From contig DATBSD010000091.1 in the NCBI GenBank assembly GCA_036559965.1, forward strand, positions 1 to 58,241: a stretch of 58,241 nucleotides of DNA. The letters run 5' to 3'. Shown here piece after piece: positions 250 through 24,721 of the stretch. The translations under genes were made by a program, and so were the position numbers. Position 1 is the first letter of the stretch, and each line of letters begins with the position of its first letter. Under the pieces are notes generated by a model. It had not been told where the DNA came from, searched no databases, and saw only the letters and a program-made list of their open reading frames with translations. The DNA is from Candidatus Limnocylindrales bacterium (GTDB lineage Bacteria; Chloroflexota; Limnocylindria; Limnocylindrales; CSP1-4).

Positions 250-339
250 CCGTGGGCTGCCGGGAGACGCCTGCGCGCACGCGCCCGGGATCCGCTCCAC
301 GCATGCCGACCACGCCGCACCCGAGCGCATGAGGATCGC

Positions 340-696: not shown

Positions 697-1442
697 CGCC
701 CGAGCGCCCGGCGGACGAAGCAGCTGGCGGCCAGGCGGCCGACGCTGCCACGCCGGACCCGACCGAGCCAGTGGGCGTCGTCGCCACCGCGGGGTCAGTG
801 GCCGTCAGCGAGCCGATCCGCGTCGCCAACACCGTCTGGACGCCGGCTGACCCGCAGGCGTATCTCGGCGGCCGTGTGCCGACGGTCGCGCACCTGGCCG
901 AGATCGAGGCCGACTACGACCGATCGGACAACGCCCGCTGGTCGGGGGCGCTCGAGGTCATCCCCACGACGGCCGACTATGTGCTCGATCTCATCCGCGT
1001 CAACAGCCTCTGGCCGCTCCTCTCCGGCCTGGCGTGCTGCGCGATGGAGATGATGTCGGCGGCCACGTCGGTCAACGACATGGACCGCTTCGGCATGTTC
1101 CCCTTCCGGGCCAGCCCCCGCCAGGCCGACGTGCTCATCGTGGCGGGCACGTTGACGACCAAGATGGCCGGCCCGCTCATCCGGCTCTGGGAGCAGATGC
1201 CGGAGCCCAAGTGGTGCGTGGCGATGGGCGACTGCACCTGCTCGGGCGGCCGCTACAAGCGCTCCTACGCGACGATCCAGGGCATCGATCGCGTGATGCC
1301 CGTCGACGTCTACGTGCCCGGCTGCCCGCCCCGGCCGGAGGGCCTCATCTACGGCATGCTCAAGCTCCAGCAGCTGATCATGGAGCGTCGCGGCCACTGG
1401 CGCGATCGGGTCATCGGACCGACCGTCCCGGACGGCGTCTGA
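687..1442 (+). CDS. nuoB: NADH-quinone oxidoreductase subunit B (N2 cluster subunit) with a long N-terminal extension
   Basis: Lies in the 3' part of track ORF 495..1442. GTG 687 (or 693) overlaps the nuoA stop. Conserved motifs GLACCAMEM, GDCTCSGG and VPGCPPRPE are present. About 95 aa of Ala/Pro/Thr-rich sequence precede the conserved core, so the exact start is uncertain. Confidence 0.85.
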   Translation: MEVTPERPADEAAGGQAADAATPDPTEPVGVVATAGSVAVSEPIRVANTVWTPADPQAYLGGRVPTVAHLAEIEADYDRSDNARWSGALEVIPTTADYVLDLIRVNSLWPLLSGLACCAMEMMSAATSVNDMDRFGMFPFRASPRQADVLIVAGTLTTKMAGPLIRLWEQMPEPKWCVAMGDCTCSGGRYKRSYATIQGIDRVMPVDVYVPGCPPRPEGLIYGMLKLQQLIMERRGHWRDRVIGPTVPDGV

Positions 1443-1584
1443 GCAGGCGGAAGGAGCCCCGGCCATCGACACCGCGCTCAAGCGCCGCCTGGAGACCGCT
1501 TTCGCTGCGCAGCTGGCGGGCCCCGTCACGCAGCGCCACGACACGACCGAGATCCGCGTCACGGCCGGCGATGCCGCACAGGTC

Positions 1585-2013
1585 ATGCGCACGCTCCACG
1601 ACGACCCGACGTTCCGCTTCCGCCTGCTGGCTGACATCAGCGGCGTGGATACGGGCACGACGATGCAGGTCGTCTACCACGTCTGGTCCGACACGACGCC
1701 CGACTGGCTGCGCGTCATCGTCGTCGACCTCGAGCGCGACGACCCGCGCTGTCCCTCGATCACCTTCCTCTGGAAGGGCGCCGAGTGGGGCGAGCGCGAG
1801 GCCTACGACATGTTCGGCATCATCTTCGAGGGCAACCGCGACCTGCGCCGCATCTACATGCCGCCCGACTACGTGAGCTTCCCCCTGCGCAAGGACTTCC
1901 TGCTGCCGGACGACGCGTCGCGCTCGCCGGGCATGGGCATCCGACACATGGAGCAGGCTGCGGCGGCACCGTCGACGGCCGGCGCCTCGCTCCGCCAGGC
2001 CAGGACGGACTGA
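1585..2013 (+). CDS. nuoC: NADH-quinone oxidoreductase subunit C (30-kDa subunit); true start probably upstream at a non-canonical codon
   Basis: Motifs FRFRLLADISGVD, WKGAEWGEREAYDMFGIIFEGN and LRRIYMP are present. The first ATG/GTG (1585) leaves only about 10 aa before the FRF..L.D..GVD motif. The in-frame upstream translation (IDTALKRRLETAFAAQLAGPVTQRHDTTEIRVTAGDAAQV) resembles the missing N-terminal strands. AAGGAG lies at 1451-1456. Confidence 0.7.
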   Translation: MRTLHDDPTFRFRLLADISGVDTGTTMQVVYHVWSDTTPDWLRVIVVDLERDDPRCPSITFLWKGAEWGEREAYDMFGIIFEGNRDLRRIYMPPDYVSFPLRKDFLLPDDASRSPGMGIRHMEQAAAAPSTAGASLRQARTD

Positions 2014-2015
2014 CC

Positions 2016-3242
2016 ATGGCGACCGAGCCGCAGACGCGCATCCGCTCGCTCGACGACCCGCTGCTCATGGTCGACACGCCGGCGACCATCTACGACGCCG
2101 TCCCGCCCTACCCGCCGCGAACGGAGCGCGAGGCCGAGTTCTACCACCTGCGCGAAGGCGAGATGCTCGTCAACCTCGGGCCGCAGCATCCCTCGACGCA
2201 CGGCGTCCTGCGTGTCGTGCTGAAGATCGACGGCGAGCGCGTCGTGGATCTCGATCCCGTCCTCGGCTACCTCCACCGGGGCGTCGAGAAGATCTGCGAG
2301 AACAGCGACTGGCATATGGTCGTCAGCCACTGTGACCCGCTCGAGTACATCGCCTCGATGTTCAGCGAGCTGGTGCCGGTCATGGCCGCCGAGCAGCTGC
2401 TCGATGTCAAGGTGCCCCGCCGCGCCGAGTACATCCGCGTCCTGGCCTGCGAGCTCAACCGCATCTCCAGCCATGCCTTGTTCATGGGCTGGCTGGCCCT
2501 CGACCTGGGCGGCCTGACGCCCATCCTCTACGGCTTCATCGAGCGCGACGAGATCGTCGAGATGCTGGCCGCGCTGACGGGCCAGAAGCTGCTCTTCAAC
2601 TACATGCGCATCGGCGGCGTCAACGGCGATCTGAACCACGAGTTCCTGAGCCGGCTGGGCGACTGGATGAGCCACGCCGGCCAGCGCATCGAGGACAGCC
2701 AGACGCTCATCAACGAGAACGAGATCTTCGTCAAGCGCACGCGCGGCCTGGGCGTCGTCGACCGCGAGACGGCGCTCCGCATGTGCCTCACCGGGCCGCC
2801 CCTGCGTGCCACAGGCATCCCCTACGACGTCCGCCGGGCCCATCCCTACGGCGCCTACCCGGAGCTCGAGTTCGAGATCCCGACCCGCGAGGAAGGCGAC
2901 TCCTACGCCCGCTATCTGCTTCACCTCGACGAGATCAAGCAGAGCATCCACATCATCGACCAGGTCCTCCACGAGATGCCCGACGGCCCGATCATGGCCA
3001 AGCTGCCGCGCCTCCTGCGGCCGCGGCCGGGCCGGGCATTCGCAGCCATCGAGAGCCCGCGCGGCCAGTCCGCCGTGTACGCCATGAGCGACGGCAGCGA
3101 TCAGCCCTTCCGGCTGCGCATCCACGACCCGTCGTACTTCAACCTCCAGACGGTCGGCCTGCTGACGCCCGGGCACCTCGTCGCCGACACGATGGCCATC
3201 ATGGCCAGCCTCGACCCGATCATGGGCGGCGTCGACAAGTGA
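2016..3242 (+). CDS. nuoD: NADH-quinone oxidoreductase subunit D (49-kDa subunit)
   Basis: ATG 2016 follows the nuoC stop after a 2-nt gap (internal start of track ORF 1785..3242). The product is 408 aa. Motifs include GPQHPSTHGVLR, RVLACELNRISSH and the C-terminal MASLDPIMGGVDK. Confidence 0.92.
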   Translation: MATEPQTRIRSLDDPLLMVDTPATIYDAVPPYPPRTEREAEFYHLREGEMLVNLGPQHPSTHGVLRVVLKIDGERVVDLDPVLGYLHRGVEKICENSDWHMVVSHCDPLEYIASMFSELVPVMAAEQLLDVKVPRRAEYIRVLACELNRISSHALFMGWLALDLGGLTPILYGFIERDEIVEMLAALTGQKLLFNYMRIGGVNGDLNHEFLSRLGDWMSHAGQRIEDSQTLINENEIFVKRTRGLGVVDRETALRMCLTGPPLRATGIPYDVRRAHPYGAYPELEFEIPTREEGDSYARYLLHLDEIKQSIHIIDQVLHEMPDGPIMAKLPRLLRPRPGRAFAAIESPRGQSAVYAMSDGSDQPFRLRIHDPSYFNLQTVGLLTPGHLVADTMAIMASLDPIMGGVDK

Positions 3243-4624
3243 GCGCGCTGTCGCGGCCGTGGAGCCGCCTGACGCTGGCGGGCAAGATCGTCCTGCCGCT
3301 CATGGCGCTGATGGCCGTGCTCACGCTGGCGCTCCTGGCCGGCGTGGCGCTGGGGCCCGTCCCGTTCGTGGTCGACATCGTGGCCGACACCATCGTCGCC
3401 AACCTGGGCATCGTCCGCTTCGTCGGCGCGGTCACGGCCGTGCTCCTGCTGACCGTGCCGACCGCGTTCATCATCATCTTCCTGGAGATGAAGGTCATCG
3501 CCCTGATGAACCTTCGCCTGGGGCCCAACCGGGTCGGCCCGTGGGGCACGCTCCAGTCGGCCATCCACGGCTTCAAGGTGCTGGGCAAAGAGGACTTCAC
3601 GCCGACCGGCGCCGACGTGCCGGTCTTCACCCTCGCGCCGGCGGTGGTCTACCTGGCGAGCGTGATGTGCTTCCTGGTGCTGCCCTTCGCACCGGGCATC
3701 GTGGGCGCTGACATGAACATCGGGCTGCTCTATTTCTTCGCCGTCGGCAGCCTCGGCGTGGTGGGCCTGATGATGGCCGGCTGGTCGAGCTTCAACAAGT
3801 ACAGCCTGCTGGGCGGCCTGCGCGCGGCGGCCCAGATCATCAGCTACGAGATCCCGCTGACGCTCTCGATCGTCGGCGTCGTGCTCCTGGCGGGCACGCT
3901 CAGCCTCAACAGCATCGTGCTCGAGCAGAGCGGCAGCTTCCTCGACTGGTTCATCTTCCGCCAGCCGCTCGGCTTCCTCATCTTCTTCATCGCCGCCACC
4001 GCCGAGGGCGCCCGGACGCCGTTCGACCTGACCGAGGCGGACTCGGAGATCGTGGCCGGCTTCGCGACCGAGTACAGCGGCATGCGCTTCGGCTTCTTCT
4101 TCTTCGCCGAGTACGTCAACGTCTTCCTGCTCTCGGCACTGACGGTCGTCCTCTTCTTCGGCGGCTGGAACGCCCCGCTCGACCTGGGCGGCATGCTCGC
4201 CGCCATCGGCCTCTCGGTCGACCCCACGCTGGCGCCCGGCCAGCTCGGCATCGGGCTGCTCCTGGGCGTCGGCCTCGTGCCGCCCATCGTCATCCTGCTG
4301 CTCGCCCTGCCCATCTGGGCACTCCGCAGCGACGTCAAGTTCTGGCAGGCCCTGGTCATCGGCTTCCTGCTCTTCAACGTGCTCGTGGTCGGCGCCCTCA
4401 TGCTCTGGGCGACGGCCAGCTTCGAGGCCGTCGAGGGCCTCATCTGGTTCTTCGCCAAGACCTACGTCTTCGTGGTCGTCTTCGTGTGGATGCGCGGCAC
4501 GCTGCCACGCGTGCGCATCGATCAGCTCATGGGCTTCGCCTGGAAGTGGCTGCTGCCCGCCGCCCTCATCAACCTCTTCTTGACGGCGGCCGCCATCGTC
4601 GTCGTCGACTCGGTCCGCGGGTGA
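3239..4624 (+). CDS. nuoH: NADH-quinone oxidoreductase subunit H
   Basis: GTG 3239 overlaps the nuoD stop (GTGA). Polytopic membrane protein. ND1/NuoH motifs LRLGPNRVGPWGTLQS, GWSSFNKYSLLGGLRAAAQ.ISYE and ATEYSGMRFGFFFFAEY are present. There is an extra N-terminal helix; an alternative ATG lies at 3302. Confidence 0.85.
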   Translation: MSALSRPWSRLTLAGKIVLPLMALMAVLTLALLAGVALGPVPFVVDIVADTIVANLGIVRFVGAVTAVLLLTVPTAFIIIFLEMKVIALMNLRLGPNRVGPWGTLQSAIHGFKVLGKEDFTPTGADVPVFTLAPAVVYLASVMCFLVLPFAPGIVGADMNIGLLYFFAVGSLGVVGLMMAGWSSFNKYSLLGGLRAAAQIISYEIPLTLSIVGVVLLAGTLSLNSIVLEQSGSFLDWFIFRQPLGFLIFFIAATAEGARTPFDLTEADSEIVAGFATEYSGMRFGFFFFAEYVNVFLLSALTVVLFFGGWNAPLDLGGMLAAIGLSVDPTLAPGQLGIGLLLGVGLVPPIVILLLALPIWALRSDVKFWQALVIGFLLFNVLVVGALMLWATASFEAVEGLIWFFAKTYVFVVVFVWMRGTLPRVRIDQLMGFAWKWLLPAALINLFLTAAAIVVVDSVRG

Positions 4625-4628
4625 GGCC

Positions 4629-5462
4629 ATGAACATGCTGCCGGGCAAGGGCATCTTCAAGGGCATGGCCCTGACGCTCCTGCGCATGGTCCAGCCCAAG
4701 GCGACCATCCAGTACCCCGAGGTCGTCAACGACATCTCGCCCAGGCACCGTGGCCGGCTGCAGCTGCTCTACGACGAGCACGGCACGCTCAAATGCGAGA
4801 CCTGCTTCCAGTGCGCCCAGGCCTGTCCCATCGAGTGCATCGACATGGGCGGCGTCGACACCAAGGACCGCTTCCACATCCACTGGGGCGCACCGGAGCA
4901 GTACGCCGAGCGGCGCGAGGAATCCGCCCTGCGGCGATCCGGACGGCCGGTGCCCGATCGCTCGTTCGACCCCTTCCTGGGCATCGACACGGCGGCGCTC
5001 GATCGGATCCTCGACGAGGAGGGCTACGACCCGGCGCGCATGCTGACCATCCTGACGCGCACCCAGGAAGCCTACGGCCACCTGCCGGTCGCCGCGCTCA
5101 AGCACATCAGCCACGCGACAGGTGCCTGGTACGCCGAGATCTACGGCACCGCCAGCTCCTACGACCACTTCCGCCTCGACCCACCGAGCGGCCACGTCTT
5201 CGGCGTCTGCCGCTGTCCCGCGTGCCAGTTCCGCGGCAGCGGCCGGATCGTGGCCGCCCTGGAGGACGCGCTCGCCACGACGCTCGGCCAGAGCAGCCCG
5301 GAAGGCGCCGTGCGGCTCGAGGCGATCGACTGCCACGGCGAGGCCGGGACGCAGCCGCTCGTGCTGCTCGACGGTGAGCGGGTCGCCGACGCCTCACCAG
5401 CCGCCGTCGTCGCCAGCGCCACCGCGCTGCGTGCCGCCCACGCCGAGGCGGGGCACGCATGA
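4629..5462 (+). CDS. fusion protein: NuoI-like N-terminal half (single CxxCxxCxxxCP motif) joined to a NuoE-like thioredoxin-fold domain
   Basis: The N-terminus KATIQYPEVVNDISPRHRGRLQLL...CETCFQCAQACPIECIDM matches NuoI up to and including the first ferredoxin motif; the second motif is absent. The C-terminal half ARMLTILTRTQEAYGHLPVAALKHIS...VFGVCRCPACQFRGSGRIVAALED...LEAIDCHGEAGTQPLVLLDG matches the NuoE/24-kDa 2Fe-2S fold, with an altered Cys pattern. Confidence 0.8.
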   Translation: MNMLPGKGIFKGMALTLLRMVQPKATIQYPEVVNDISPRHRGRLQLLYDEHGTLKCETCFQCAQACPIECIDMGGVDTKDRFHIHWGAPEQYAERREESALRRSGRPVPDRSFDPFLGIDTAALDRILDEEGYDPARMLTILTRTQEAYGHLPVAALKHISHATGAWYAEIYGTASSYDHFRLDPPSGHVFGVCRCPACQFRGSGRIVAALEDALATTLGQSSPEGAVRLEAIDCHGEAGTQPLVLLDGERVADASPAAVVASATALRAAHAEAGHA

Positions 5463-6778
5463 CGACTCGCGTCCTGGCGGGCGACAAGTCCTGGCCCCGC
5501 GTCCTGCTCGGCCGGACCTACGATCCCGATGCCGGCCTCGCCGCTGCCGAGCGAGCGGGCGCCTGGAAAGCGTGGCGGACGGCTGCCGCCGACCTCGGGC
5601 CGGAGGCGCTCATCCGCCTCGTCGGCGAATCCGGCCTCCGCGGTCGTGGCGGCGGCGGCTATCCGACGGCCGACAAGTGGCGGACCTGTCGCGCGCAGCC
5701 GTCCCCGACGCGCTACGTCGTCGCCAACGGCTACGAGGCCGACCCCGGCTCGGCGACCGATCGGACGCTCATGGCGAGCGACCCACACGGTGTGCTCGAA
5801 GGCGTCGCCCTGGCCGCCTACGCCGTCGGGGCACGGCGTGCCATCGTCGCCGTCCGAGCCGACGCGACGGTCGCCATCCGGCGTCTCGCGGCCGCCCTGC
5901 GGGAGGCCGAGGAGGCCGGCCTCATCGGCAGCGACGGGCTGGCCCGTGGCATCGACATCCACATCGAGCTGCGCGAGCTGCAGGGCGCCTTCGTGGTCGG
6001 CGAGGAGACGGTCCTGCTGCGCGCCATCGAGGGCAAGCGCGCGATGCCCGACCAGCGACCGCCCTATCCCGCCGAGCGCGGCCTGTGGGATGAGCCGACC
6101 GTCGTCAACAACGTGGCCACGCTGGCGGCCGTGCCCTGGATCGTGACCAACGGCGCCGGCGCCTTCCGCAAGCTGGGCGCCGCCGAGGAGCCCGGCACGA
6201 CGCTCGTCCACGTCAGCGGTGCGGTCAAGGAACCAGGCATCCTCGAGGTGCCCACCGGCACGACGCTCAAGGCCATCATCAAGGCGGCCGGCGGCGCGAC
6301 CGGGACGACCAAGGCGATCCTCGTCGGCGGCCCGTCGGGCGGCTTCCTGCCGGCCGATGCGCTCTCGACCGTCTACGGCCGGGCGGCCCTCCACGAGGCC
6401 GGCGCCATCGTCGGGTCGGGCAGCATCCTGGTCGTCGACCAGTCCGCCTGCATCGTCGAGCTGGCCACGATGCTCGAGCGCTTCATGAGCGACGAGTCGT
6501 GCGGCAAGTGCATCCCCTGCCGCATCGGGACGCGGCGACTGGTCGAGATCGGCGAGCGCTTCACCGGCGGCCGGCCACGACCGACCGACGTGCAGCTGCT
6601 GGCCGACCTGTCGGCCGACGTCCGCGACGGCTCGCTCTGCGGTCACGGCATCACGGCGCCCAATCCGCTGACCAGCGGGATGCGATACTTCGGCGCGGAG
6701 TTCGACGCTCACATCACCCGGAGCACCTGCCCGGCCGGCATCTGCTCGCCGCTGCGCGTCGCCGGAGGCATCGCCTGA
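5459..6778 (+). CDS. nuoF: NADH-quinone oxidoreductase subunit F-like (FMN/NADH-binding 51-kDa subunit)
   Basis: The start is an ATGA overlap with the upstream gene. Motifs include GLRGRGGGGYPTADKW, a central SLBB-like region, ESCGKCIPCRIGTRRL and GSLCGHG (N3 4Fe-4S ligands). Confidence 0.9.
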   Translation: MTTRVLAGDKSWPRVLLGRTYDPDAGLAAAERAGAWKAWRTAAADLGPEALIRLVGESGLRGRGGGGYPTADKWRTCRAQPSPTRYVVANGYEADPGSATDRTLMASDPHGVLEGVALAAYAVGARRAIVAVRADATVAIRRLAAALREAEEAGLIGSDGLARGIDIHIELRELQGAFVVGEETVLLRAIEGKRAMPDQRPPYPAERGLWDEPTVVNNVATLAAVPWIVTNGAGAFRKLGAAEEPGTTLVHVSGAVKEPGILEVPTGTTLKAIIKAAGGATGTTKAILVGGPSGGFLPADALSTVYGRAALHEAGAIVGSGSILVVDQSACIVELATMLERFMSDESCGKCIPCRIGTRRLVEIGERFTGGRPRPTDVQLLADLSADVRDGSLCGHGITAPNPLTSGMRYFGAEFDAHITRSTCPAGICSPLRVAGGIA

Positions 6779-6781
6779 GCC

Positions 6782-9385
6782 ATGGCCGACCTGACGATCC
6801 GCCCCGACGCCGACGCCGCCCAGATGCTCACGTCACCGGCTGACCGCCTGCTCGACGTCCAGGCCCCGCAGCGACCCCTCGCGACGCCGGCCTTCACCAT
6901 CGAGGTCGACGGCCGCCAGGTGACGGGCCGCGAGGGACAGACCATCCTCGAGGTCTGCCGCGACAACGGCATCGAGATCCCGACCCTCTGCTACGAGCCC
7001 AAGCTGCCTGGCTTCGGCGCCTGCCGGATGTGCGTCGTCGAGGTCGAGGGCGAGGACCAGCCGCCCATCAGCTGCTCCCGGGCGTGCGAGCCGGAGATGG
7101 TCGTGCGCACGCAGACACCGCGCATCCGCCAGCTCCGCAAGACGAACCTCGAGCTCATCTTCAGCGACCACAACGCCTACTGCCTGCCGCCCTGCCAGAA
7201 CAAGTGCCCCAGCCACATCGACATCCCGGGCTTCCTGAAGGCCAATGCCGAGGGCGACTTCCGCGAGTCGGCGCGCATCTTCAAGCGCACCATCCCGTTC
7301 CCGAGCGTGCTCGGGCGGGTCTGCCCGGCGCCCTGCGAGGAGCACTGCCGGCGGGACGAGGTCGACGAGGCCATCGCCATCCGCGATACCCACCGTTACG
7401 CCGGCGACCAGGTCCTCAAGGCCCAGACGAAGGGCGTCAAGGCGCCCGTTCCGTTCGCGGTCCAGGCGCCGAGCGGCAAGCGGGCGGCCGTCATCGGCTC
7501 GGGTCCGGCCGGGGCGTCGGCCGCCTACTACCTGGCCATCGCCGGCCACGAGGTGACGATCTACGAGCGCGACCCGGCGCCGGGCGGCATGCTCCGCTAC
7601 GGCATCCCGCAGTACCGCCTGCCGAAGGACGAGGTCCTGGCGGCGGAGTACGAGGGCCTGGCCGACCTTGGTGTGAAGACGGTCTGCGACGCCGAGCTCG
7701 GGCGCGACTTCACCATCGACGACCTCCAGAACCAGGGCTTCGACGCCGTCACCGTCGCCATCGGCTGCTACGACACGAACGAATTGGGCATCCCGGGCGA
7801 GGATGCCGACGGTGTCATCGACGGCCTCGAGTACCTGCGCATCGCGACGCTCGGCCTGCCCTATCCGGGCCACGAGGGCACGCGCGTCGTGGTCATCGGC
7901 GGCGGCTTCACGTCGATGGACTGCACGCGCACCTCGGTCCGCCAGGGAGCCCGCGAGGTGACCCTCGTCTATCGCCGCGACATGAAGGACATGCCCGCCG
8001 CCAACGAGGTCCACGAGGCCATCGAGGAGGGCGCGCGGGCGATCTTCCAGGCCGCGCCGACGCGCGTCGTGACCGACGACCAGAACCGCGTCACGGGCGT
8101 CGAGTTCCAGCGCATGCGCATGGGCGCGCCGGATGCCTCCGGTCGGCGGCGGCCGGAGCCCCAGCCAGGCACCGAGTTCGTCATCGACTGCGATCGCGTC
8201 CTGCTGGCCATCGGCCAGGGTCCCGAGCTGGGTTGGCTGGCCAACGGCGCGGCCGGGGTCACGGCCAGCAAGCAGAAGCGACTGCAGGCCGACGGCGTGA
8301 CCTTCGCCACCGGGCGACCCGGCGTCTTCGGCAGCGGCGACGTGCGCATCGGCGCGGCGACCGTGGTCGAGGCAGTCGCCGAGGGCCGTCGCGCGGCCTA
8401 CGCCGTCGACGCCTACCTCCAGGGCCTCGACCTCGAGGCCATCCGCACGCGCCAGACGCTGGCCGAGCCGCAGCCCGAGTTCCTGTCCATCGTGCCCTAC
8501 ACCCAGGAGCTCAAGGAGCCCCGCATCCGGCTCCAGGCGATGCCCGCCGACGTGCGCAACCAGAGCTACGTCGAGTACGAGATCCCGTACACCCAGCAGG
8601 AGGCGATGGAGGAGTCCAAGCGCTGCCTCCAGTGCACCTGCGAGGCGATCGGCTTCTGCGATCTGCGGCGCCAGGGGATCGAGTACGGGACGACGCTCGA
8701 GACGCTCGAGCCCGCTCGCACGGGGATGTCGTTCCGGAGCGTCAGCGAGAACCGCTTCACGGGCGACAACCACGACTACATCCGCGACGACAGCCACGCC
8801 TTCATCCTGCGCGAGCCGTCACGCTGCATCGACTGCGGCCGCTGCGCCAACGTCTGCAAGGAGGTCGTTGGCGCCGCCTGCTACGACTTCATGCGCAGCG
8901 GCTTCGACACGCTCGTCACCACGCCGCTCGACATGAGCCTCAACACGACGCCGTGCGTCTCGTGCGGGCGGTGCGCCGAGACCTGCCCGACCGGCGCACT
9001 GATGCCCAAGCCACGCGTGCTCGAGAAGTACGAGGTCGACGAGAGCCGCTGCATCCTGTGCGGCATCTGCGTCGACGCCTGTCCCTACGACGCCCTTCGA
9101 TGCGGGCCGGACTTCGAGCTCGCCCACGAGAGCCGCGAGGAGCCGATGATCGACCTCATCGCCCTGGCGGCCATGGAGCGCGACACGGAGATGACCTACG
9201 TGCGCCGAGAGCGCGACTGGCTGGAGCGCGCCCAGGCCTCCGGTCGCCTGCTCGATCCCGGCCGCCTGCTGCCGATGTTGCCGCCGGGCGTGAACGGCAA
9301 CGGCCACGGCGACGGGCACCGCCACGACGGCGACGGCCACGGCGGCAACGGCCATGCCGGCGGCGGCCACGCCCATGCCCGTTAG
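6782..9385 (+). CDS. chimeric Fe-S flavoprotein: NuoG-type N-terminal 2Fe-2S domain, then a GltD-like NAD(P)H/FAD oxidoreductase module, then NuoG-type 4Fe-4S and ferredoxin motifs, then a His/Gly/Asp-rich tail; no molybdopterin-like domain
   Basis: 2Fe-2S domain: [53 protein letters not shown]. GltD-like module: [104 protein letters not shown]. 4Fe-4S region: [15 protein letters not shown]...[17 protein letters not shown] and [17 protein letters not shown]. Confidence 0.8.
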
Positions 9386-9397
9386 GGCGGTCGTCGC

Positions 9398-9940
9398 GTG
9401 ACGCTGCCGGAGACCATCCCGCTGCTCGGCTGGACCTGGAACGACCTGCTCTTCCTGATCCTCGCCGGCACGCTCGTGGGCACGGCGCTGATGGTCGTCC
9501 TGGGCCGCAACATCATCCGCTCGGGGCTCTGGCTCATCCTCTGCTTCGCGACGCTGGCCGGCCTCTACGCGCTGCTTGGCAACGCCATCGTGGCCGTCGC
9601 GCAGGTGCTCGTCTACATGGGCGCCATCGCCGTGCTCATCCTTTTCGCCATCATGCTCACCCAGACGAAGGGTGGACCGGCCGCGCTCGTCTTCCACCAC
9701 CAGGCCTGGGCGGCGGCGATCGCCGCCATCGTGATCGGCGGCCTGCTGGCCATCGTCGACGGCGCCAGCGGCTGGCCGCTGGCGGGCGAGTTCATGCGCA
9801 CGAGCACCGAGGCCGTGGCGGCGCTGCTCTTCGGCGACTACGTCCTGGCCTTCGAGATCGTCGGGGTGCTGCTGCTGGCGGCCGTCATCGGTGGTGTCTT
9901 CCTGGCCAAGCGCGACGACAGCCCGGAGACGCCTGGGTGA
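9398..9940 (+). CDS. nuoJ: NADH-quinone oxidoreductase subunit J
   Basis: GTG start. The product is 180 aa with five hydrophobic helices. The conserved segment [23 protein letters not shown] is present. Confidence 0.85.
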
Positions 9941-10248
9941 GCCAGACGCTGGAGTCATACCTCGCTCTGTCGGCCATCCTCTTCGCCATCGGCACCTTCG
10001 GCTTCCTCGCCCGCCGCAACGCCATCGCGATGCTCATGTCGATCGAGCTGATGCTCAACGCGGTCAACCTCTCGATCATCGCGTTCGGCGCCTTCATCCC
10101 GGAGCTCAACGGCGACGCAGCCGTCATCGCCCTCATGGTCATGGCCGTGGCGGCCGCCGAGGCGACCGTCGGGCTGGCCATCGTCATCGCCATCTACCGC
10201 AACCGCCGCACACCGCTGGTCGACGAGTACACGCAGATGCGGGAGTAG
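9937..10248 (+). CDS. nuoK: NADH-quinone oxidoreductase subunit K
   Basis: GTG 9937 overlaps the nuoJ stop (GTGA). The product is 103 aa: [45 protein letters not shown]...[12 protein letters not shown]. It is only the 3' end of the long track ORF 7030..10248. Confidence 0.9.
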
Positions 10249-10253
10249 CCGTG

Positions 10254-12224
10254 ATGGGCATGCCCACGCTCGTCACGCTGCTGCTCGTGCTGCCCATGGT
10301 GGGCTTCGTGCTGACCGCCCTCGTCGGACGGCGGCTGGCGACCCGGGCGGGCATCATCGCGGTGCCCATCATCGTGCTCACCTGGCTCATCGCGATGATC
10401 GTCGTCTACACCGCCCTGAGCGGCGGCTTCGGCGAGGAAGGCCTCCACTTCACGCTCTACGAGTGGATCCCGGCCGGCGAGTTCCGAGTGCCCTTCAGCC
10501 TCGCTGTCGACAACCTGACCGCATGCCTGCTCATCGTGGTCACGACCGTGGGCATGCTGGTGCATGTCTACTCGGTCGGCTACATGGCCCACGACCCGGG
10601 CCGCTGGCGCTTCTTCGCCTACCTCAACCTGTTCATGTTCAGCATGTTGCTGCTCGTCCTGGCGGGCAACTTCCTGCTCCTCTTCGCGGCCTGGGAGCTG
10701 GTCGGCCTGTCGAGCTACCTGCTCATCGGCTTCTGGTACCCCCGGCGCAGCGCGGCCATCGCGGCCAAGAAGGCGTTCCTCGTCAACCGCGTCGGTGACG
10801 TCGGCTTCGCGCTCGGCATCATGGCCATCTGGACGACCGTCGGGACACTCGAATTCGGCGAGGTCTTCGAGCTCCTGCCCGAGCAGTTCCACGCCGGCGA
10901 GATCGCGCCCTGGATGCTCTTCGGCATCGCGCTGCTGCTCTTCTGCGGCGCGGTCGGCAAGAGCGCCCAGTTCCCGCTCCACGTCTGGCTGCCGGACGCG
11001 ATGGAAGGCCCGACCCCGGTCAGCGCCCTCATCCATGCCGCGACGATGGTCAACGCGGGCGTCTACTTCGTGGCCCGCGCCAACCCCATCTTCAGCCTCT
11101 CACCGGCAGCCATGACGCTGGTCGCCGCCATCGGCATCTTCACGGCCATCCTGGCCGCCTCGATCGCGCTGACCCAGAAGGACATCAAACGCGTGCTGGC
11201 CTACTCGACGCTCAGCCAGCTGGGCTACATGTTCGCGGCCCTTGGGGTCGGCGCCTACATCGCGGCCATCTTCCACCTCATGACCCACGGCTTCTTCAAG
11301 GGCCTCCTGTTCCTCGGATCGGGGTCGGTCATCCACGCCGTCCATGAGGAGCAGGACATGGACCGCATGGGCGGCCTGTGGCGGAAGATCCCGGTGACCC
11401 ACTGGACGATGCTCATCGGTGCCCTGGCCATCGCCGGCATCCCGCCGCTGGCCGGCTTCTTCAGCAAGGACGAGATCCTCGGGGGCGCCTTCGAGAACGG
11501 CTTCTATCTGGTCTGGCTCATCGGGGCCTTCGTCGCCTTCCTGACGGCCTTCTACATGTTCCGCCTGATGGGCAAGACCTTCTACGGCCCGAGCCACGTC
11601 GATCCGACGGTCGAGCCCAAGATCCACGAGTCATCGCGCTGGATGACCATCCCACTCGTCCTGCTGGCCATCCCGTCCATCGCGCTGGGCATGGTCCTCG
11701 GGTTGCCGCTCGGGGAGGGCCTCATCGACCAGTGGCTGGAGCCGGTCTTCGAGCACGCCCAGGAGAACCTCGGCCTGACCCACGAGCCGGTCCAGCTGTT
11801 CGGCATCGACGGCCTGATCATCATCGGCAGCACCGCCGTCGCAGCATTCGGCATCGCCATCGCCATCCGCCTCTTCGGCTTCCACTGGCCGCTTCGCGGG
11901 AGCGACACGGCGCCGCGGCCGGAGCGGGTGGCGGAGCTCACGCAGCGCGCGCCCGCCCTCTATCGCGCGTCGTTCCATAAGTGGTGGTTCGACGACCTCA
12001 ACCACGTCCTGTTCGTGGTCATCGGCGGGCGCATCGCCAACGGCCTCTGGTGGTTCGACCGGGCCATCGTCGACGGCACCGTGAATGGCGTCGGCGACGT
12101 CGTCCAGGGCGCCGGACGCGACCTGCGCCGGATCCAGACCGGCCGGGTGCAGAACTACGCGCTGGGCATCGCCGTCGCCCTCATCGTCGTGGCCGTCTAC
12201 TTCGTGATCGCGGTCGCCGGCTGA
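10254..12224 (+). CDS. nuoL: NADH-quinone oxidoreductase subunit L
   Basis: ATG 10254 (GTG 10251 is an alternative) follows GGGAG. Antiporter-like subunit motifs: WELVGLSSYLLIGFWY, GKSAQFPLHVWLPDAMEGPTPVSALIHAATMV. A long C-terminal region is consistent with the lateral helix. Confidence 0.9.
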   Translation: MGMPTLVTLLLVLPMVGFVLTALVGRRLATRAGIIAVPIIVLTWLIAMIVVYTALSGGFGEEGLHFTLYEWIPAGEFRVPFSLAVDNLTACLLIVVTTVGMLVHVYSVGYMAHDPGRWRFFAYLNLFMFSMLLLVLAGNFLLLFAAWELVGLSSYLLIGFWYPRRSAAIAAKKAFLVNRVGDVGFALGIMAIWTTVGTLEFGEVFELLPEQFHAGEIAPWMLFGIALLLFCGAVGKSAQFPLHVWLPDAMEGPTPVSALIHAATMVNAGVYFVARANPIFSLSPAAMTLVAAIGIFTAILAASIALTQKDIKRVLAYSTLSQLGYMFAALGVGAYIAAIFHLMTHGFFKGLLFLGSGSVIHAVHEEQDMDRMGGLWRKIPVTHWTMLIGALAIAGIPPLAGFFSKDEILGGAFENGFYLVWLIGAFVAFLTAFYMFRLMGKTFYGPSHVDPTVEPKIHESSRWMTIPLVLLAIPSIALGMVLGLPLGEGLIDQWLEPVFEHAQENLGLTHEPVQLFGIDGLIIIGSTAVAAFGIAIAIRLFGFHWPLRGSDTAPRPERVAELTQRAPALYRASFHKWWFDDLNHVLFVVIGGRIANGLWWFDRAIVDGTVNGVGDVVQGAGRDLRRIQTGRVQNYALGIAVALIVVAVYFVIAVAG

Positions 12225-13762
12225 TGGATGGCGTGCCGATGCTGACCCTCATCCTCCTGGCACCGCTGCTCGGTGCCCTGATCATCGCCTTCCTGCCGCG
12301 CCGCTACCCCGACCTCATCCGCGGCACGGCGCTCCTCGCGGCGCTCGTCGCCTTCGCGCTCTCGCTGGCGCTGCTCTCGGCCTTCGACCCCGAGGCGACC
12401 GGCGTGGGCGGCTTCACCTTCGTCGAGAGCGTGCCCTGGATCCCATCCTTCGGCATCACCTACACCCTGGGCATCGACGGCATCAGCCTCGTGCTCGTGG
12501 TCCTGACCACGCTGCTGACCTGGATCAGCATCCTCGCCAGCGTCCGGCCGATCACCGATCGCGTCAAGGAATACATGATCTCGTTCCTCATCCTCGAGGT
12601 CGGCATGCTCGGCGTGTTCATGGCCCTCGACCTCTTCCTGTTCTACGTCTTCTGGGAGATCGTGCTCGTGCCGATGTACCTCATCATCGGCATCTGGGGC
12701 GGGCCGAACCGCATCTACGCGACGCTCAAGTTCGTGCTCTACACCCTCGTCGGCTCGCTGCTCATGCTCGTCGCCATCCTGGCCACGGCCTATGCCTACG
12801 CCTCGACGACGGGCTCGTGGCAGGGTGCCTTCGACTACCTGACCCTGCGCGGCTTCGGCTTCGACACCGCCCTCCAGGTGGGCGCCTTCCTGGCCTTCTC
12901 GCTGGCCTTCGCCATCAAGGTGCCCATGTGGCCGTTCCACACCTGGCTGCCCGACGCGCACGTCGAAGCGCCGACGGCCGGCTCGGTCATCCTCGCCGGC
13001 GTGCTCCTGAAGCTGGGCGGCTACGGCTTCCTGCGCTTCGCGCTGCCGCTCTACCCCGACGCGGCACAGACGTTCGCACCGCTCATCGTCGTGCTCTCGC
13101 TCATCGCCATCATCTATGGCGCCATCGTCTCGATCGTCCAGCCCGACCTCAAGAAGCTGGTCGCCTACAGCTCGGTCAGCCACATGGGCTTCGTGACGCT
13201 GGGCATCTTCGTCTTCCAGCAGCAGGCCATGGACGGGGCCATCCTCCAGATGGTCAACCACGGCCTCATCACCGGCGCCCTGTTCCTGTGCGTGGGCGTC
13301 ATCTACGAGCGGACGCACGACCGGACCATCGCCCGCATGGGCGGCCTGGCGGCGCACACCCCGGCCTATGCCGCCGCCTTCGGCTTCTTCATGCTCGCCA
13401 GCGTCGGGCTGCCGGGCCTGGCCGGCTTCGTCGGTGAGTTCCTCGTCTTCGTCGGCACGTTCGCGGTCAGCCCGCTGGCCGCCGCCATCGCCGCCCTGGT
13501 CATGGTCTTCGGCGCGGTCTACCTGCTCTGGATGTTCCAGCGCGTGGCCTTCGGTCCGCTCTCCGAGTTCCTCAAGGGCCTCGGGCACCACCTCACCGAC
13601 ATGCGCCCGATCGAGGTCCTGACGCTCGCGCCGCTGGCCGGCCTGACCGTCATCTTCGGCCTCTTCCCGGGCCTTCTGCTCGACCTCATCCAGGGGCCGG
13701 TGGACGGCATCATCGCCGGGTTGACCGCGAGCGACGCGGTCGCCTGGCTGCCGTGGCGTTGA
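12224..13762 (+). CDS. nuoM: NADH-quinone oxidoreductase subunit M
   Basis: ATG 12224 overlaps the nuoL stop by 1 nt. Motifs: FYVFWEIVLVPMYLIIGIWG, KVPMWPFHTWLPDAHVEAPTAGSVILAGVLLKLGGYG. Confidence 0.9.
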   Translation: MDGVPMLTLILLAPLLGALIIAFLPRRYPDLIRGTALLAALVAFALSLALLSAFDPEATGVGGFTFVESVPWIPSFGITYTLGIDGISLVLVVLTTLLTWISILASVRPITDRVKEYMISFLILEVGMLGVFMALDLFLFYVFWEIVLVPMYLIIGIWGGPNRIYATLKFVLYTLVGSLLMLVAILATAYAYASTTGSWQGAFDYLTLRGFGFDTALQVGAFLAFSLAFAIKVPMWPFHTWLPDAHVEAPTAGSVILAGVLLKLGGYGFLRFALPLYPDAAQTFAPLIVVLSLIAIIYGAIVSIVQPDLKKLVAYSSVSHMGFVTLGIFVFQQQAMDGAILQMVNHGLITGALFLCVGVIYERTHDRTIARMGGLAAHTPAYAAAFGFFMLASVGLPGLAGFVGEFLVFVGTFAVSPLAAAIAALVMVFGAVYLLWMFQRVAFGPLSEFLKGLGHHLTDMRPIEVLTLAPLAGLTVIFGLFPGLLLDLIQGPVDGIIAGLTASDAVAWLPWR

Positions 13763-13767
13763 CGGGC

Positions 13768-15246
13768 ATGGAGACGACCGGCCTGCTGGCCCTGGCGCCG
13801 CTCATCGTCGTCATCGGCGTCGCCATCCTGGTCGTCATCGTGGACATGATCCGGCCGGGCGACGACCGCCTGGCGGGCGTGGTCGGGACCGTCGGCCTGA
13901 TCGTCGCATTGGCGATGGTCGTCGGTGTCGGCTCGGGCGATGTCCCGGTCATGGGCGGGACCTACATCCGCGACCCGCTGACCGCCCTGCTGGACGCCAT
14001 CTTCATCGTCGTCGCCATCCTGACCATCCTCACCGCCCCGGCCTACCTCCGGCCGCGCGGCCTGCCACTGGGCGAATTCACGGCCACGCTCCTGTTCGCC
14101 ATCGCCGGGGCCATGGTCATCGCCGGCGCGCGCGACCTGCTCATCCTCTTCCTGGGTCTCGAGCTGCTCGTGCTGCCGGGCTACATGCTGGCCGGCTACG
14201 CCAAGCGCGACGGCTACTCGACCGAGGGCGCCATCAAGTACTTCCTGCTGGGCTCGTTCAGCTCGGCCATCTTCCTGTTCGGCCTCGCCTACACGTGGGG
14301 CTATACGGGCACGACGAACATCTCGGCCGTCGCCGACGCGCTCGGCCAGGTGACCGCCATCTCGCCCGCCCTGGCCATGGGCCTCGCCCTGCTGACGGTC
14401 GGCGTGGCCTTCAAGATCGCCGCCGTGCCCTTCCACTACTGGACACCCGACGCCTACCAGGGCTCGCCGACGCCGGTCACCGGCTACCTCAGCGTGGGGC
14501 CCAAGGTGGCCGCCTTCGCGCTCATCCTGCGCCTCTTCGTGGAGGCGCTGGGGCCGCTCCAGGGCGACATCGTCAACGTCGTCATCGTGCTCTCGACGCT
14601 CACGATGACGCTCGGCAACCTGGTCGCCATCACGCAGGACAACATCAAGCGGATGCTGGCCTACAGCTCGATCGCGCACACCGGTTACATGCTCGTCGGG
14701 CTGGCCGCGTATGGGGCGGCGCCGGCCGGCTCGCCGGCCGCCGAGCAAGGCCTCCAGGGGCTGCTCTTCTACAGCGTCGCCTACGCCTTCATGAACATCG
14801 GCGCCTTCGCTGTCGTGACCGCCCTCCAGGGCGTGCCCGGCGTGACCAGTCAGATCGCCTCGTTCTCGGGCCTCGGCCGGCGAGCGCCGGTGGCCGGAGC
14901 GGTGATGACCCTGTTCCTGCTTTCGCTGACCGGCATCCCGCCGACCGCTGGCTTCTTCGCCAAGGCACTCGTCATCCTCTCGGCCGTCGAGGCGGGCGGC
15001 TGGGCGAGCGTGCTGGCCGTCATCGCCGTGCTCAACGCCGCCATCGCCGCCTTCTACTACCTGCGCGTCGTCGTCTACATGTACATGCGCGACGCGCCCG
15101 GCGATGCCAAGCCACTCTCCGACTCGTGGCCGCTGCGCCTGGGCCTCGGCCTGGCCGCCGTGGCGACCATCCTCTTCGGCATCATCCCCGGCCTCATCCT
15201 GCCGACCACTCAGGCCGCCGCCCAGGTCCTGCTGCTCGCGCCGTAG
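13768..15246 (+). CDS. nuoN: NADH-quinone oxidoreductase subunit N
   Basis: ATG 13768; the alternative GTG 13753 would overlap nuoM by 10 nt. Motifs: LGLELLVLPGYMLAGY, KIAAVPFHYWTPDAYQGSPTPVTGYL, KRMLAYSSIAHTGYML. Confidence 0.85.
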   Translation: METTGLLALAPLIVVIGVAILVVIVDMIRPGDDRLAGVVGTVGLIVALAMVVGVGSGDVPVMGGTYIRDPLTALLDAIFIVVAILTILTAPAYLRPRGLPLGEFTATLLFAIAGAMVIAGARDLLILFLGLELLVLPGYMLAGYAKRDGYSTEGAIKYFLLGSFSSAIFLFGLAYTWGYTGTTNISAVADALGQVTAISPALAMGLALLTVGVAFKIAAVPFHYWTPDAYQGSPTPVTGYLSVGPKVAAFALILRLFVEALGPLQGDIVNVVIVLSTLTMTLGNLVAITQDNIKRMLAYSSIAHTGYMLVGLAAYGAAPAGSPAAEQGLQGLLFYSVAYAFMNIGAFAVVTALQGVPGVTSQIASFSGLGRRAPVAGAVMTLFLLSLTGIPPTAGFFAKALVILSAVEAGGWASVLAVIAVLNAAIAAFYYLRVVVYMYMRDAPGDAKPLSDSWPLRLGLGLAAVATILFGIIPGLILPTTQAAAQVLLLAP

Positions 15247-15310
15247 GTCGCCGGAACCGGCCGCGCGCCCGACGACCACCCCGCGATGCCTCCGGCGCCT
15301 CGCGCGCGCC

Positions 15311-15486
15311 ACTGTTCCTGTGGGGAACGTAACCGACCAGATCGGCGGCTGGCGTGCCGACTTCGTTCCCCCACAGAACGCCAACGGCGAGTCGGGCACG
15401 GATCGGTCGACTTCGTTCCCCCACGGAACAGGAGGGGCCGGAACTCGCGGCGCCTCGTCGCTTGCGTTCCCCTGGGGAACGCGCCG
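15311..15486. repeat. array of four 15-nt palindromic units (GTTCC-N5-GGAAC type) spaced 50-51 bp apart in the nuoN/otsB convergent spacer
   Basis: The units are GTTCCTGTGGGGAAC (15314-15328), GTTCCCCCACAGAAC (15365-15379), GTTCCCCCACGGAAC (15415-15429) and GTTCCCCTGGGGAAC (15466-15480). Units 2 and 3 share an identical 17-mer, CGACTTCGTTCCCCCAC. Confidence 0.75.
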
Positions 15487-15516
15487 GACGGCAGGCACGA
15501 CCCAAGGGCGCTGGGC

Positions 15517-17105: not shown

Positions 17106-17182
17106 CGCGCGGCAGTGTAGCGGCACGGTGCCAGGGACGGATGCGCAGGCTCTCGGGCGATCCTTGCTAGCATCCGCGCGGC

Positions 17183-17905: not shown

Positions 17906-17921
17906 GCCCTGCCGCTCCGCA

Positions 17922-23442: not shown

Positions 23443-23466
23443 CCAGAGGAACAGGGAGAACCCATC

Positions 23467-24702: not shown

Positions 24703-24721
24703 CGCCGGCGGCACGGTCGCG

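Follow-up and report, generated by a model that had tools for sequence, protein, structure and literature searches.

The stretch of DNA analyzed here (the window) covers positions 1–58,241 of contig DATBSD010000091.1, 58,241 nucleotides (nt) from a Candidatus Limnocylindrales bacterium (Chloroflexota; assembly GCA_036559965.1), with a GC content of 70%. Its first part carries an operon for respiratory complex I in the order nuoA-B-C-D-H-[I'E]-F-[G'I'']-J-K-L-M-N, where brackets mark fusion genes and all members lie on the forward strand. The element under study, the gene G'I'' (6782–9385), is a continuous open reading frame (ORF) of 867 amino acids (aa) with coding-type composition (GC content at third codon positions of 0.95), and its product is called G' below. 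Together with I'E (4629–5462; 277 aa) and F (5459–6778; 439 aa), it forms a cassette, the E-F-G' trio, that occupies the position expected for nuoI, between nuoH and nuoJ; from nuoH through nuoJ the neighboring genes overlap or sit within ~13 nt of each other. nuoI itself is divided around these three genes, with its N-terminal half on the I'E fusion and its C-terminal half on G'. As judged by its sequence matches, G' is an NfnA/StnC-type large subunit in which the pterin-like C-terminal domain is replaced by this half of NuoI.

The N-terminal [2Fe-2S] domain of G' (aa 38–112; 6893–7117), equivalent to clusters N1b of complex I and A1 of NfnA, is defined by Pfam Fer2_4 (E 4e-20) and by Cys70, Cys81, Cys84 and Cys98; Pfam NADH-G_4Fe-4S_3 matches aa 119–135, through the first 17 positions of the model only. 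A GltD/NfnL-like module follows (aa 134–535; 7181–8386), with two [4Fe-4S] sites (Cys134/138/142 and Cys181/185/189), a flavin adenine dinucleotide (FAD) fold with the motif GSGPAG, and a fold for reduced nicotinamide adenine dinucleotide phosphate (NADPH) with the motif GGGFTSMD. The module is recognized by Pfam Fer4_20, the GltD/DPD-type iron-sulfur region (aa 134–214, E 3e-19), by Pyr_redox_2 (aa 234–535, E 3e-26), and by the alignment and structure comparison with NfnA and GltD-like proteins described below. The chain continues into an iron-sulfur region of NuoG/HydA type (8624–9001; Fer4_7, Fer4 and a sub-threshold Fer4_Nqo3 match at aa 675–740), in which a CxxCxCx5C motif (aa 615–626) resembles A3/N5, and a 2x[4Fe-4S] ferredoxin domain (Cys682/685/688/692 and Cys725/728/731/735) provides an A2/N4-like cluster plus A4. 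This region aligns with the ferredoxin domains of HydA and YjgC, and a Pfam Fer4 dicluster match covers aa 725–771. The C-terminal half of NuoI comes next (aa ~745–798, ending in FELA; 9014–9175), and the translation closes with a low-complexity tail rich in His and Gly (aa ~835–867; 9284–9385 with the stop codon), so that G' ends ~100 aa past the ferredoxin domain. The tail (9284–9382) differs between orthologues. A 17-aa insertion (aa ~637–653; 8732–8782) is found in G' of Limnocylindria and is missing from Thermoleophilia and from the aligned StnC-like proteins.

The NuoG model TIGR01973 matches G' at aa 40–139 only (92.6 bits, cut-off 470.05), and no molybdopterin family matches G' in Pfam or NCBIfam, indicating that the large C-terminal domain of NuoG is absent. 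The best NCBIfam model is PRK12814, named 'putative NADPH-dependent glutamate synthase small subunit' and of 2Fe-2S plus GltD architecture (549.5 bits, cut-off 916; aa 39–695 against model positions 5–631 of 657), to which we regard G' as related in architecture without being a member. The GltD-family models TIGR01318 (324 bits) and TIGR01316 (303 bits) match aa 136–546 as a domain, with all GltD-family scores under the whole-protein cut-offs. The GltD part is thus a domain within an 867-aa protein, not a stand-alone ~470-aa subunit that partners GltB or NfnA/S, and no gltB or nfnA/S lies among the neighbors of the target, which are nuo genes. In an AlphaFold 2 (AF2) model built on a 58-sequence alignment, the predicted local distance difference test score (pLDDT) is mostly >80 for aa 230–555, and Foldseek aligns the model to NfnI-L, NfnB and GltD with target-normalized TM scores of 0.76–0.80; in this model, the GltD-like module is complete at the level of the fold.

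Among solved structures, G' is closest to the large subunits of NfnABC/StnABC, soluble bifurcating NADPH:NAD+/ferredoxin transhydrogenases known from Caldicellulosiruptor saccharolyticus (9BOV), Sporomusa ovata (8OH5) and Thermococcus sibiricus (9N5U). The matches, which span aa 39–768, include C. saccharolyticus NfnA (9bov_A; E 1e-161, residues 6–698 of 1178), S. ovata StnC (8oh5_C; E 1e-149, residues 5–700 of 1172) and, third, T. sibiricus NfnA; the top three Foldseek hits of the AF2 model are the same structures. In NfnA/StnC, a [2Fe-2S] cluster, an NfnL/GltD-like FAD/NADPH domain and NuoG-type clusters are followed by a pterin-less, formate dehydrogenase (Fdh)-like C-terminal domain (PMC10482914, PMC11829005), which in Stn mediates tetramerization and whose deletion prevented isolation of an active complex (PMC10482914). 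Features common to G' and these subunits are the 2x[4Fe-4S] domain, the A3 motif, the [2Fe-2S] domain at the N-terminus and, placed within the cluster region of NuoG type, the FAD/NADPH domain. The Fdh/NuoG-like C-terminal domain (~470 aa, with cluster A5 and the tetramerization interface) is missing from G', and the NuoI half stands in its place, beginning ~20 residues past the A4 motif where NfnA/StnC have A5 and the Fdh-like domain. The junction between A4 and the NuoI half aligns with consecutive units of the FwdF polyferredoxin.

The other half of NuoI occupies aa ~9–80 of the fusion protein (nt ~4653–4868) and includes the first CxxCxxCxxxCP motif, CETCFQCAQACP. Of the 121 positions of the NuoI model TIGR01971, 1–67 match the fusion protein (aa 12–79) and 71–117 match G' (aa 745–791). 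Likewise, aa 10–79 of the fusion protein match the solved NuoI chains 8e9g_I and 8qby_I, and in the latter, from Paracoccus, residues 18–82 are matched by the N-terminal half and residues 93–143 by the C-terminal half. When NuoI was rejoined in silico (aa 1–79 of the fusion protein plus aa 742–816 of the target), it gave a single alignment to 8qby_I over residues 18–143 (E 4e-23) and scored 101.2 bits over TIGR01971 positions 1–117; taken separately, the halves score 50 and 60 bits. The operon has no intact nuoI, its sole NuoI sequence consisting of the two halves on different proteins. Motif counts, taken from the gene calls of orthologues (their ORF starts are noisy, and alignments were re-derived), agree with this division: CxxCxxCxxxC occurs three times in all 77 complete orthologues of G', and CxxCxxCxxxCP occurs once, at about position 55, in 69 of 70 orthologues of the fusion protein. 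These odd numbers imply that each protein bears an unpaired half-ferredoxin, and we infer that the two halves would reassemble as one 2x[4Fe-4S] fold holding N6a and N6b.

Two trivial explanations of the architecture were rejected. An assembly or frameshift artefact is contradicted by the continuity of both fusion ORFs and by the presence of the arrangement in all 84 related loci, from two phyla. A truncated or selenocysteine-interrupted formate-dehydrogenase-like gene is also discarded: relatives of ~800–850 aa that end in the pterin domain ('...HCARL') exist, but they have no NuoI half and form a separate group.

An initial annotation of the window, made from the sequence alone, had described the target as a chimera of 2Fe-2S, GltD-like flavoprotein and 4Fe-4S parts. 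That order is confirmed by Pfam (Fer2_4, Fer4_20, Pyr_redox_2 and Fer4), and all motifs it quoted are in the translation. The GltD-like module, for which it had proposed domain searches as the test, finds support in Fer4_20, Pyr_redox_2, TIGR01318/TIGR01316 and AF2/Foldseek, and the stated lack of a molybdopterin-like domain agrees with the family searches and with the short reach of TIGR01973. The chimeric architecture is therefore real, although it is not a one-off but a homologue of NfnA/StnC conserved in two phyla. What has to be revised is the placement in a canonical nuoG slot, since the trio sits where nuoI belongs, and the view of a NuoG with a module swapped in, since the protein is of NfnA/StnC type with a NuoI half for its pterin-like domain. 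The 'additional ferredoxin motif' (aa 757–768) is present as described, but its identity is the C-terminal half of NuoI; similarly, a NuoI/E fusion had been noticed, but the split of nuoI around the cassette had been missed.

The fusion protein continues from its NuoI half through a conserved linker into a NuoE/NfnC/StnA-like domain (aa ~121–261). NuoE-family models match aa 121–267, and the closest solved structures to aa 118–261 are StnA (8oh5_A, E 7e-22) and NfnC. In the window, the [2Fe-2S] motif of this domain reads C194-x-C196-x2-C199...C235, with Ala for the fourth canonical Cys; the motif is canonical in Thermoleophilia. Of 64 aligned fusion proteins of Limnocylindria, 26 have no thioredoxin-like [2Fe-2S] domain at all. 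These 26 species form a subclade (among loci L042–L083) with fusion proteins of 217–236 aa that keep the NuoI N-terminal half, the linker and the N-terminal helical domain of NuoE.

F is a flavin mononucleotide (FMN) subunit of the NuoF/NfnB/StnB type (Pfam Complex1_51K, SLBB and NADH_4Fe-4S). It scores 388.7 bits against NfnB (9bov_B) and 375 bits against StnB, versus 280 bits against mycobacterial NuoF, and the NuoF model TIGR01959 gives 362.6 bits (cut-off 558.65); all three subunits of the module are thus closest, among solved structures, to subunits of NfnABC/StnABC. The alignment of the 439-aa protein is confined to residues 124–526 of the 584-aa NfnB/StnB, so that equivalents of StnB 1–124 and 527–584 are lacking, and both terminal domains are gone as compared with the 636–638-aa F of Thermoleophilia. 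The missing C-terminal 2x[4Fe-4S] domain is the ferredoxin site in StnB and NfnB. At its C-terminus, the window's F retains an H418/C424/C429 motif, which in the Bfu-type F of Thermoleophilia directly precedes the C-terminal ferredoxin domain; it is probably the counterpart of the Zn-stabilized linker described for StnB, and we take it as a remnant of an ancestral Bfu B subunit. Within the window, F has an intact FMN loop and a full set of four N3 cysteines; across species, three of these cysteines, the GEE motif and the FMN loop are conserved in 97–100%. At the second N3 position, ~90% of Limnocylindria species have Thr, Ser or Ala (CGKTIPC), and the window's small clade has Cys (CGKCIPC; loci L004–L083 compared). 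The acidic pair of the canonical NG-DE-GDPG is YE, FE or YG in all Limnocylindria species.

The remaining genes of the operon encode the complex I core. Upstream of the cassette lie nuoA (340–696; Pfam Oxidored_q4, E 5e-30, and 86% identity to nuoA of the distant Limnocylindria locus L003), nuoB (801–1442 for the aligned part, start codon uncertain; NF005012 with 215.5 bits, cut-off 116, and a tblastn match to L003 NuoB), nuoC (1567–2013, start approximate; 77% identity to its L003 counterpart, which bears PF00329 Complex1_30kDa), nuoD (2022–3242; NF004739 with 412 bits, cut-off 360, and 89% identity to L003 NuoD) and nuoH (3239–4624; NF004741 with 322.9 bits, cut-off 305). Downstream lie nuoJ (9398–9940; Oxidored_q3, E 1e-30), nuoK (9937–10248; Oxidored_q2, 81% identical to L003 NuoK), nuoL (10296–12224, start approximate; Proton_antipo_N and Proton_antipo_M), nuoM (12224–13762; Proton_antipo_M and Oxidored_q5_N) and nuoN (13783–15246, in an ORF that opens at 13753; Proton_antipo_M). 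The Q-module subunits NuoB, NuoC and NuoD and, by Pfam, the membrane-arm subunits NuoA, H, J, K, L, M and N are all present in this one operon, and NuoB, NuoD and NuoH pass trusted NCBIfam cut-offs. The window has no second nuo operon, as tblastn gives just cross-matches among the L, M and N paralogues, and a promoter and terminator scan of positions 1–16500 finds nothing above chance. Without the cassette, the remaining order is that of the 11-subunit backbone, A-B-C-D-H-I-J-K-L-M-N.

The division of NuoI bears directly on whether E, F and G' belong to this complex at all. They could instead form a separate soluble transhydrogenase or NAD(P)H dehydrogenase that is merely encoded within the nuo operon, as their nearest characterized relatives are soluble and an 11-subunit complex I can use other donors (PMC3144371). 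However, the operon's only NuoI consists of the halves fused to E and G', the membrane complex would otherwise lack N6a and N6b, and G' has lost the Fdh-like domain needed for isolation of active Stn and for tetramerization. Since the complex would have no NuoI without the E and G' proteins, a separate enzyme is the weakest of the readings considered here and strikes us as very improbable; the E/F/G' module is very probably an integral, NuoI-tethered part of complex I.

The arrangement is widespread. Database proteins matching the target at E <1e-10 number in the thousands, and the best 120 matches are 81–91% identical and, where named, come from metagenome-assembled genomes (MAGs) of Chloroflexota or Ca. 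Limnocylindrales; the fusion protein has the same distribution. The family goes under the names 'FAD-dependent oxidoreductase', 'formate dehydrogenase major subunit' and 'NADPH-dependent glutamate synthase beta subunit-like'. With each GTDB species represented by one genome, 481 stretches encoding relatives were found; the best 80 are 76–91% identical, and their submitters label every one as a MAG of a Chloroflexota lineage. Gene order was compared in 83 related loci, to which the Thermoleophilia contig L084 was added later (84 in all). The order A-B-C-D-H-[I'E]-F-[G'I'']-J-K-L-M-N holds, as far as the contigs reach, in 83 of 83 loci and in L084; all 13 genes are present in that order in 53 of the 83, and the few apparent swaps of L, M and N are best-hit artefacts among paralogues. 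One MAG, SMAG_U924 (DASTIG01), encodes G' on two contigs (L056 and L079, 78% and 80% identical to the window's), which represent either two copies of the operon or a mixed bin.

Among 1.8 billion representatives of 50%-identity clusters, nearly all other close relatives are StnC/NfnA-like proteins of 1000–1400 aa. Besides fragments of the target family, one other full-length cluster among the top 150 representatives reaches into the NuoI half, P0257 (816 aa, 42–44% identity), and a homologue search seeded with P0257 leads to proteins named Thermoleophilia (Actinomycetota). Operon order is unchanged in the Thermoleophilia loci L001, L002 and L084, where the fusion protein again bears the N-terminal half of NuoI and F (636–638 aa) has both Bfu accessory domains. 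The arrangement therefore spans two phyla, with Limnocylindria in Chloroflexota and Thermoleophilia in Actinomycetota. Identity between the phyla is alike for core and module subunits, mostly 36–53% with the fusion protein lowest at ~30%, which fits one ancestral operon. The G' of P0257 is missing a loop, and typical Thermoleophilia proteins such as P0440 keep GGGFTAMD and YRR in the NADPH fold.

Taken by their sequences, these enzymes form a gradient of reduction, from the full Bfu-type module of Thermoleophilia, through the window's clade, with a trimmed F that has four N3 cysteines and with an altered NuoE cluster motif, to sister clades without the NuoE cluster domain. An evolutionary series is thereby visible in which a full Bfu-type module, a trimmed F and a lost NuoE cluster domain all have living representatives.

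NfnABC/StnABC are the closest known systems. They share with the cassette the three-gene order (C/A-like, B, A/C-like), in addition to the domains of the large subunit described above. Unlike NfnB/StnB, the window's F is without both accessory domains, which its Thermoleophilia homologues have; unlike NfnC/StnA, the C-like subunit is fused to the other half of NuoI and has a cluster motif that departs from the canonical one; and G' has His204 where NfnA has Lys170 as a ligand of A7. The module is moreover encoded inside a nuo operon. A 'Nuo-Bfu' complex, proposed to be a proton-pumping membrane complex, has been predicted in Geobacter, Deferribacteres, Planctomycetes and Nitrospirae, with 14 subunits A-N in which BfuABC take the place of NuoEFG; the available part of that report mentions neither a GltD-like domain nor a split NuoI, and the phyla it gives exclude Chloroflexota and Actinomycetota (PMC9304861). 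The window's F falls outside the definition of BfuB given there, which demands a 4Fe-4S ferredoxin-type domain (PMC9304861).

The operon resembles the canonical 14-subunit complex I of, for example, Thermus, Paracoccus, E. coli and Mycobacterium in its ten core subunits (NuoA–D, H and J–N), in having a protein of the NuoE fold and a flavoprotein with FMN and N3, and in its cluster motifs of the N1b, N4 and N5 types. It differs in that E-F-G stands after H and within I rather than between D and H, that NuoI is on two polypeptides, that the C-terminal domain of NuoG is missing, that an FAD/NADPH module and cluster A4 are added, that the predicted exit to NuoI is by A4 and not N5, and that the NuoF and NuoG scores are below the family cut-offs. 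The 11-subunit enzymes related to complex I, such as the cyanobacterial and plastid NDH-1 (ferredoxin) and the archaeal Fpo (FpoF), use other inputs (Moparthi and Hagerhall 2011, PMC3144371). They share the backbone gene order and the principle of a common core that recruits different electron-input devices (PMC3144371), but their devices dock as separate proteins, whereas here the device is covalently joined by the split of NuoI. Mbx-like operons of Thermotoga and some proteobacteria include a gltD-related flavoprotein (Degli Esposti 2015, PMC4758237) and likewise tie a GltD-family NAD(P)-binding flavoprotein to the NuoI position of a complex I-related membrane complex. By description, these are sulfur- or NADP-reducing systems of the Mrp/Mbx type with the flavoprotein reported to replace NuoI, and they have no NuoE/F partners, no NuoG-type 2Fe-2S/ferredoxin domains and no split NuoI (PMC4758237).

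We therefore classify the system, from its domain composition, as a hybrid that belongs to neither the Nfn-Bfu nor the complex I family, because defining features of both parents are missing, namely the Fdh-like domain and the BfuB accessory domains on one side and a single-chain NuoI, a NuoG and a NuoF above its cut-off on the other. A search of full-text literature, which omits most subscription-journal papers, found no description of a split nuoI with an NfnABC-type arrangement and no paper joining Limnocylindria names with nuo genes.

The two dinucleotide sites of the module, in F and in G', are conserved to different degrees. In G', none of the 67 tabulated Limnocylindria species departs from the FAD motif, the NADPH motif or YRR; the NADPH-site residues VYRR..MPA align with those of the NADPH-oxidizing NfnA; and the 58 sequences compared from the two phyla share every cluster cysteine. 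The fourth ligand of A7, Lys170 in NfnA, is His204 in G' (7391–7393), invariant in 58 of 58 G' sequences from split complexes; in Stn, replacing the corresponding Lys by Arg halves activity and by Cys abolishes it (PMC11829005). G' is the best conserved subunit of the module in Limnocylindria, with 84–91% identity (the two closest loci compared) versus 65–87% for F and the fusion protein. The invariance of the dinucleotide motifs and clusters of G', set against the decaying features of F and E, implies that selection is strongest on the GltD-like entry site and the cluster chain, and the GltD-like site is the more conserved of the two proposed entry sites.

Our preferred reading, which we hold to be on balance probable in its full form, NADPH entry included, is that the target is the large subunit of an NfnABC/StnABC-type input module made integral to complex I. 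The two NuoI halves would pair into the N6a/N6b domain on NuoB/C/D/H and so tether the input arm at both ends, compensating for the docking surface lost with the C-terminal domain of NuoG. In NfnA/StnC, electrons follow the path A7-A6-A3-A2-A1 to B1/FMN, and the A2-A4-A5 branch is described as a 'dead-end' (PMC10482914, PMC11829005). In the present complex, electrons from NADH would pass from the FMN of F to the N3-type cluster, the [2Fe-2S] cluster and A2, and electrons from NADPH would pass from the GltD-like FAD to A7, A6, A3 and A2. From A2 they would leave by A4, in a polyferredoxin-like arrangement with the NuoI half, and continue through N6a, N6b and N2 (in NuoB) to quinone, assumed to be menaquinone, whose reduction would drive proton pumping by NuoH/J/K/L/M/N.

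Several points weigh against this proposal. The assembly of the halves, the route from A4 to N6a, the use of NADPH and the pumping of protons are all deduced from sequence; the rejoined NuoI scores below the TIGR01971 cut-off of 113.05; and the pLDDT of the AF2 model is <50 for aa 620–807, which makes it uninformative on the geometry of the ferredoxin/NuoI junction. Sites for NADH and NADPH that are wired together would permit an uncoupled NADPH:NAD+ short circuit, against which the sequence reveals no safeguard. Finally, in the Thermoleophilia subclade of P0257 and P0393 (L001 and L002), the second Rossmann fold of G' is degenerate (VVGDGFAA, with no YRR) and the operon is kept, which implies that an NADPH site is not indispensable to the architecture.

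The same subclade, which retains the operon without YRR and without part of the second Rossmann fold, suggests an enzyme that oxidizes NADH only, with the GltD-like module as a relic that now acts as a docking surface, a scaffold or an electron reservoir. Respiratory chains usually take electrons from NADH, and the window's F has an intact FMN loop and N3 cluster motif. Yet in Limnocylindria it is G' that is best conserved, its FAD motif, NADPH motif and YRR do not vary in any tabulated species, and it is F and the fusion protein that decay, with ~90% of species lacking an N3 cysteine and 26 of 64 fusion proteins lacking the NuoE-like cluster domain; we judge an NADH-only enzyme unlikely.

This decay invites the opposite view, namely that the enzyme is essentially an NADPH:quinone oxidoreductase, with the GltD-like FAD as main or only entry and with F and the NuoE-like domain mainly as a scaffold that positions the N-terminal half of NuoI. 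The replaced second cysteine of N3, the altered acidic pair of F in all Limnocylindria species and the absent thioredoxin-like domain of E all point in this direction, as do, by contrast, the strictly invariant dinucleotide motifs of G'. However, neither the FMN loop nor the glutamate of the YE pair nor any N3 cysteine has been lost from F in the window's clade, and a pure scaffold would not be expected to conserve three N3 cysteines, the GEE motif and the FMN loop in 97–100% of species. Such an enzyme seems to us rather unlikely, if a little less so than one restricted to NADH.

The descent of all three module subunits from Bfu-type enzymes raises the further question of electron bifurcation. 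In an enzyme like 'Nuo-Bfu', reduced ferredoxin and NAD(P)H would be co-oxidized for quinone reduction and pumping, a chemistry that Schut et al. 2022 propose for that complex (PMC9304861). But the window's F lacks both accessory domains, the C-terminal one of which is the ferredoxin site in StnB/NfnB, and the NuoE-like cluster, essential to bifurcation in Stn (PMC10482914), has non-canonical ligands here and is dispensable in sister species. The window lineage is thus missing the parts specific to bifurcation, and the enzyme is most likely, on present sequence evidence, a proton-pumping NAD(P)H:quinone oxidoreductase that has two entry sites and does not bifurcate. With quinone as acceptor, moreover, oxidation of either dinucleotide is exergonic and bifurcation is unneeded. 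We give a bifurcating or confurcating, ferredoxin-linked enzyme little credence for the window.

These results also bear on the functional suggestions of the initial annotation. It had counted two dinucleotide-binding flavoproteins in the operon, which are F and G', and had linked them to soluble NAD(P)H-linked or bifurcating enzymes, a link that the solved NfnABC and StnABC complexes substantiate for all three subunits. Of the three roles it had offered, an NADPH entry point appears to fit best, given FAD and NADPH motifs that are invariant in 67 Limnocylindria species and match the NADPH-dependent NfnA. The other two, a bifurcating or confurcating input and a ferredoxin link, are disfavored for the window by the loss of the accessory domains, both of which the Thermoleophilia homologues keep.

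How the modular complex I gained its NADH-oxidizing arm is a long-standing question, and the operon looks like a separate solution, with a soluble Nfn/Stn-type module wired in by cutting NuoI. More speculatively, an 11-subunit core may independently have gained a dehydrogenase arm for a second time, when a complete NfnABC/StnABC-type cassette was inserted into nuoI and the A2-A4 'dead end' became the wire to N6a/N6b; we put this forward as a tentative possibility. If it is true, Limnocylindria (apparently some hundreds of species-level genomes) would have a proton-pumping NADPH- and NADH-menaquinone oxidoreductase, and the Thermoleophilia enzyme could be a four-substrate machine (NADH, NADPH, ferredoxin and quinone) in which bifurcation or confurcation is coupled to a proton pump. 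It would also give a function to the A2-A4 branch, unexplained in the solved NfnABC/StnABC structures.

The architecture predicts respiratory entry of NADPH coupled to proton pumping, and we know of no characterized proton-pumping, NADPH-linked complex I. It is further a naturally occurring example of a two-cluster ferredoxin subunit divided between two polypeptides, from which it would have to reassemble. The carriers are common, largely uncultured bacteria of soil and freshwater whose respiratory chains are annotated generically, and their energy metabolism is likely to be misread by pipelines that search for matches to models of NuoG and NuoI.

Other features of the window include, 3' of nuoN (15517–18995), genes for a trehalose phosphatase, an AhpC/redoxin-like protein and a sortase-domain protein, which also adjoin the operon in L003; corA lies in the same region. 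The neighborhood of a chromosomal replication origin (41605–49947), with the nuo operon ~30 kb from dnaA, comprises a DciA-like gene (41605–41958), recF (41968–43116), dnaN (43142–44254) and dnaA (44610–46325) on the reverse strand, and rnpA (47015–47371), yidC (47600–48943) and jag/khpB (48940–49947) on the forward strand; the GC skew changes sign near 46–48 kb. Three coding-type reverse-strand ORFs, at 39328–41592 (754 aa), 36730–37968 (412 aa) and 20696–21334 (212 aa), have no Pfam match at E 1e-4 or better. The 754-aa ORF adjoins the DciA-like gene and recF, a site where gyrB is often located. A 2123-aa ORF (29701–36072, reverse) has PMT and PMT_4TMC (protein O-mannosyltransferase) as its only Pfam matches, in the C-terminal third, the first ~1350 aa being unmatched. 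Positions 22786–28708 hold a cluster that resembles actinobacterial synthesis of phosphatidylinositol and phosphatidylinositol mannosides, noteworthy for Chloroflexota, with genes for a CDP-alcohol phosphatidyltransferase, a myo-inositol-1-phosphate synthase, two lipid A-type acyltransferases, a PHP-domain protein and a GT4 glycosyltransferase. Near the end of the window, a tmRNA gene (57707–58078, reverse) encodes the tag peptide GNRQPALALAA.

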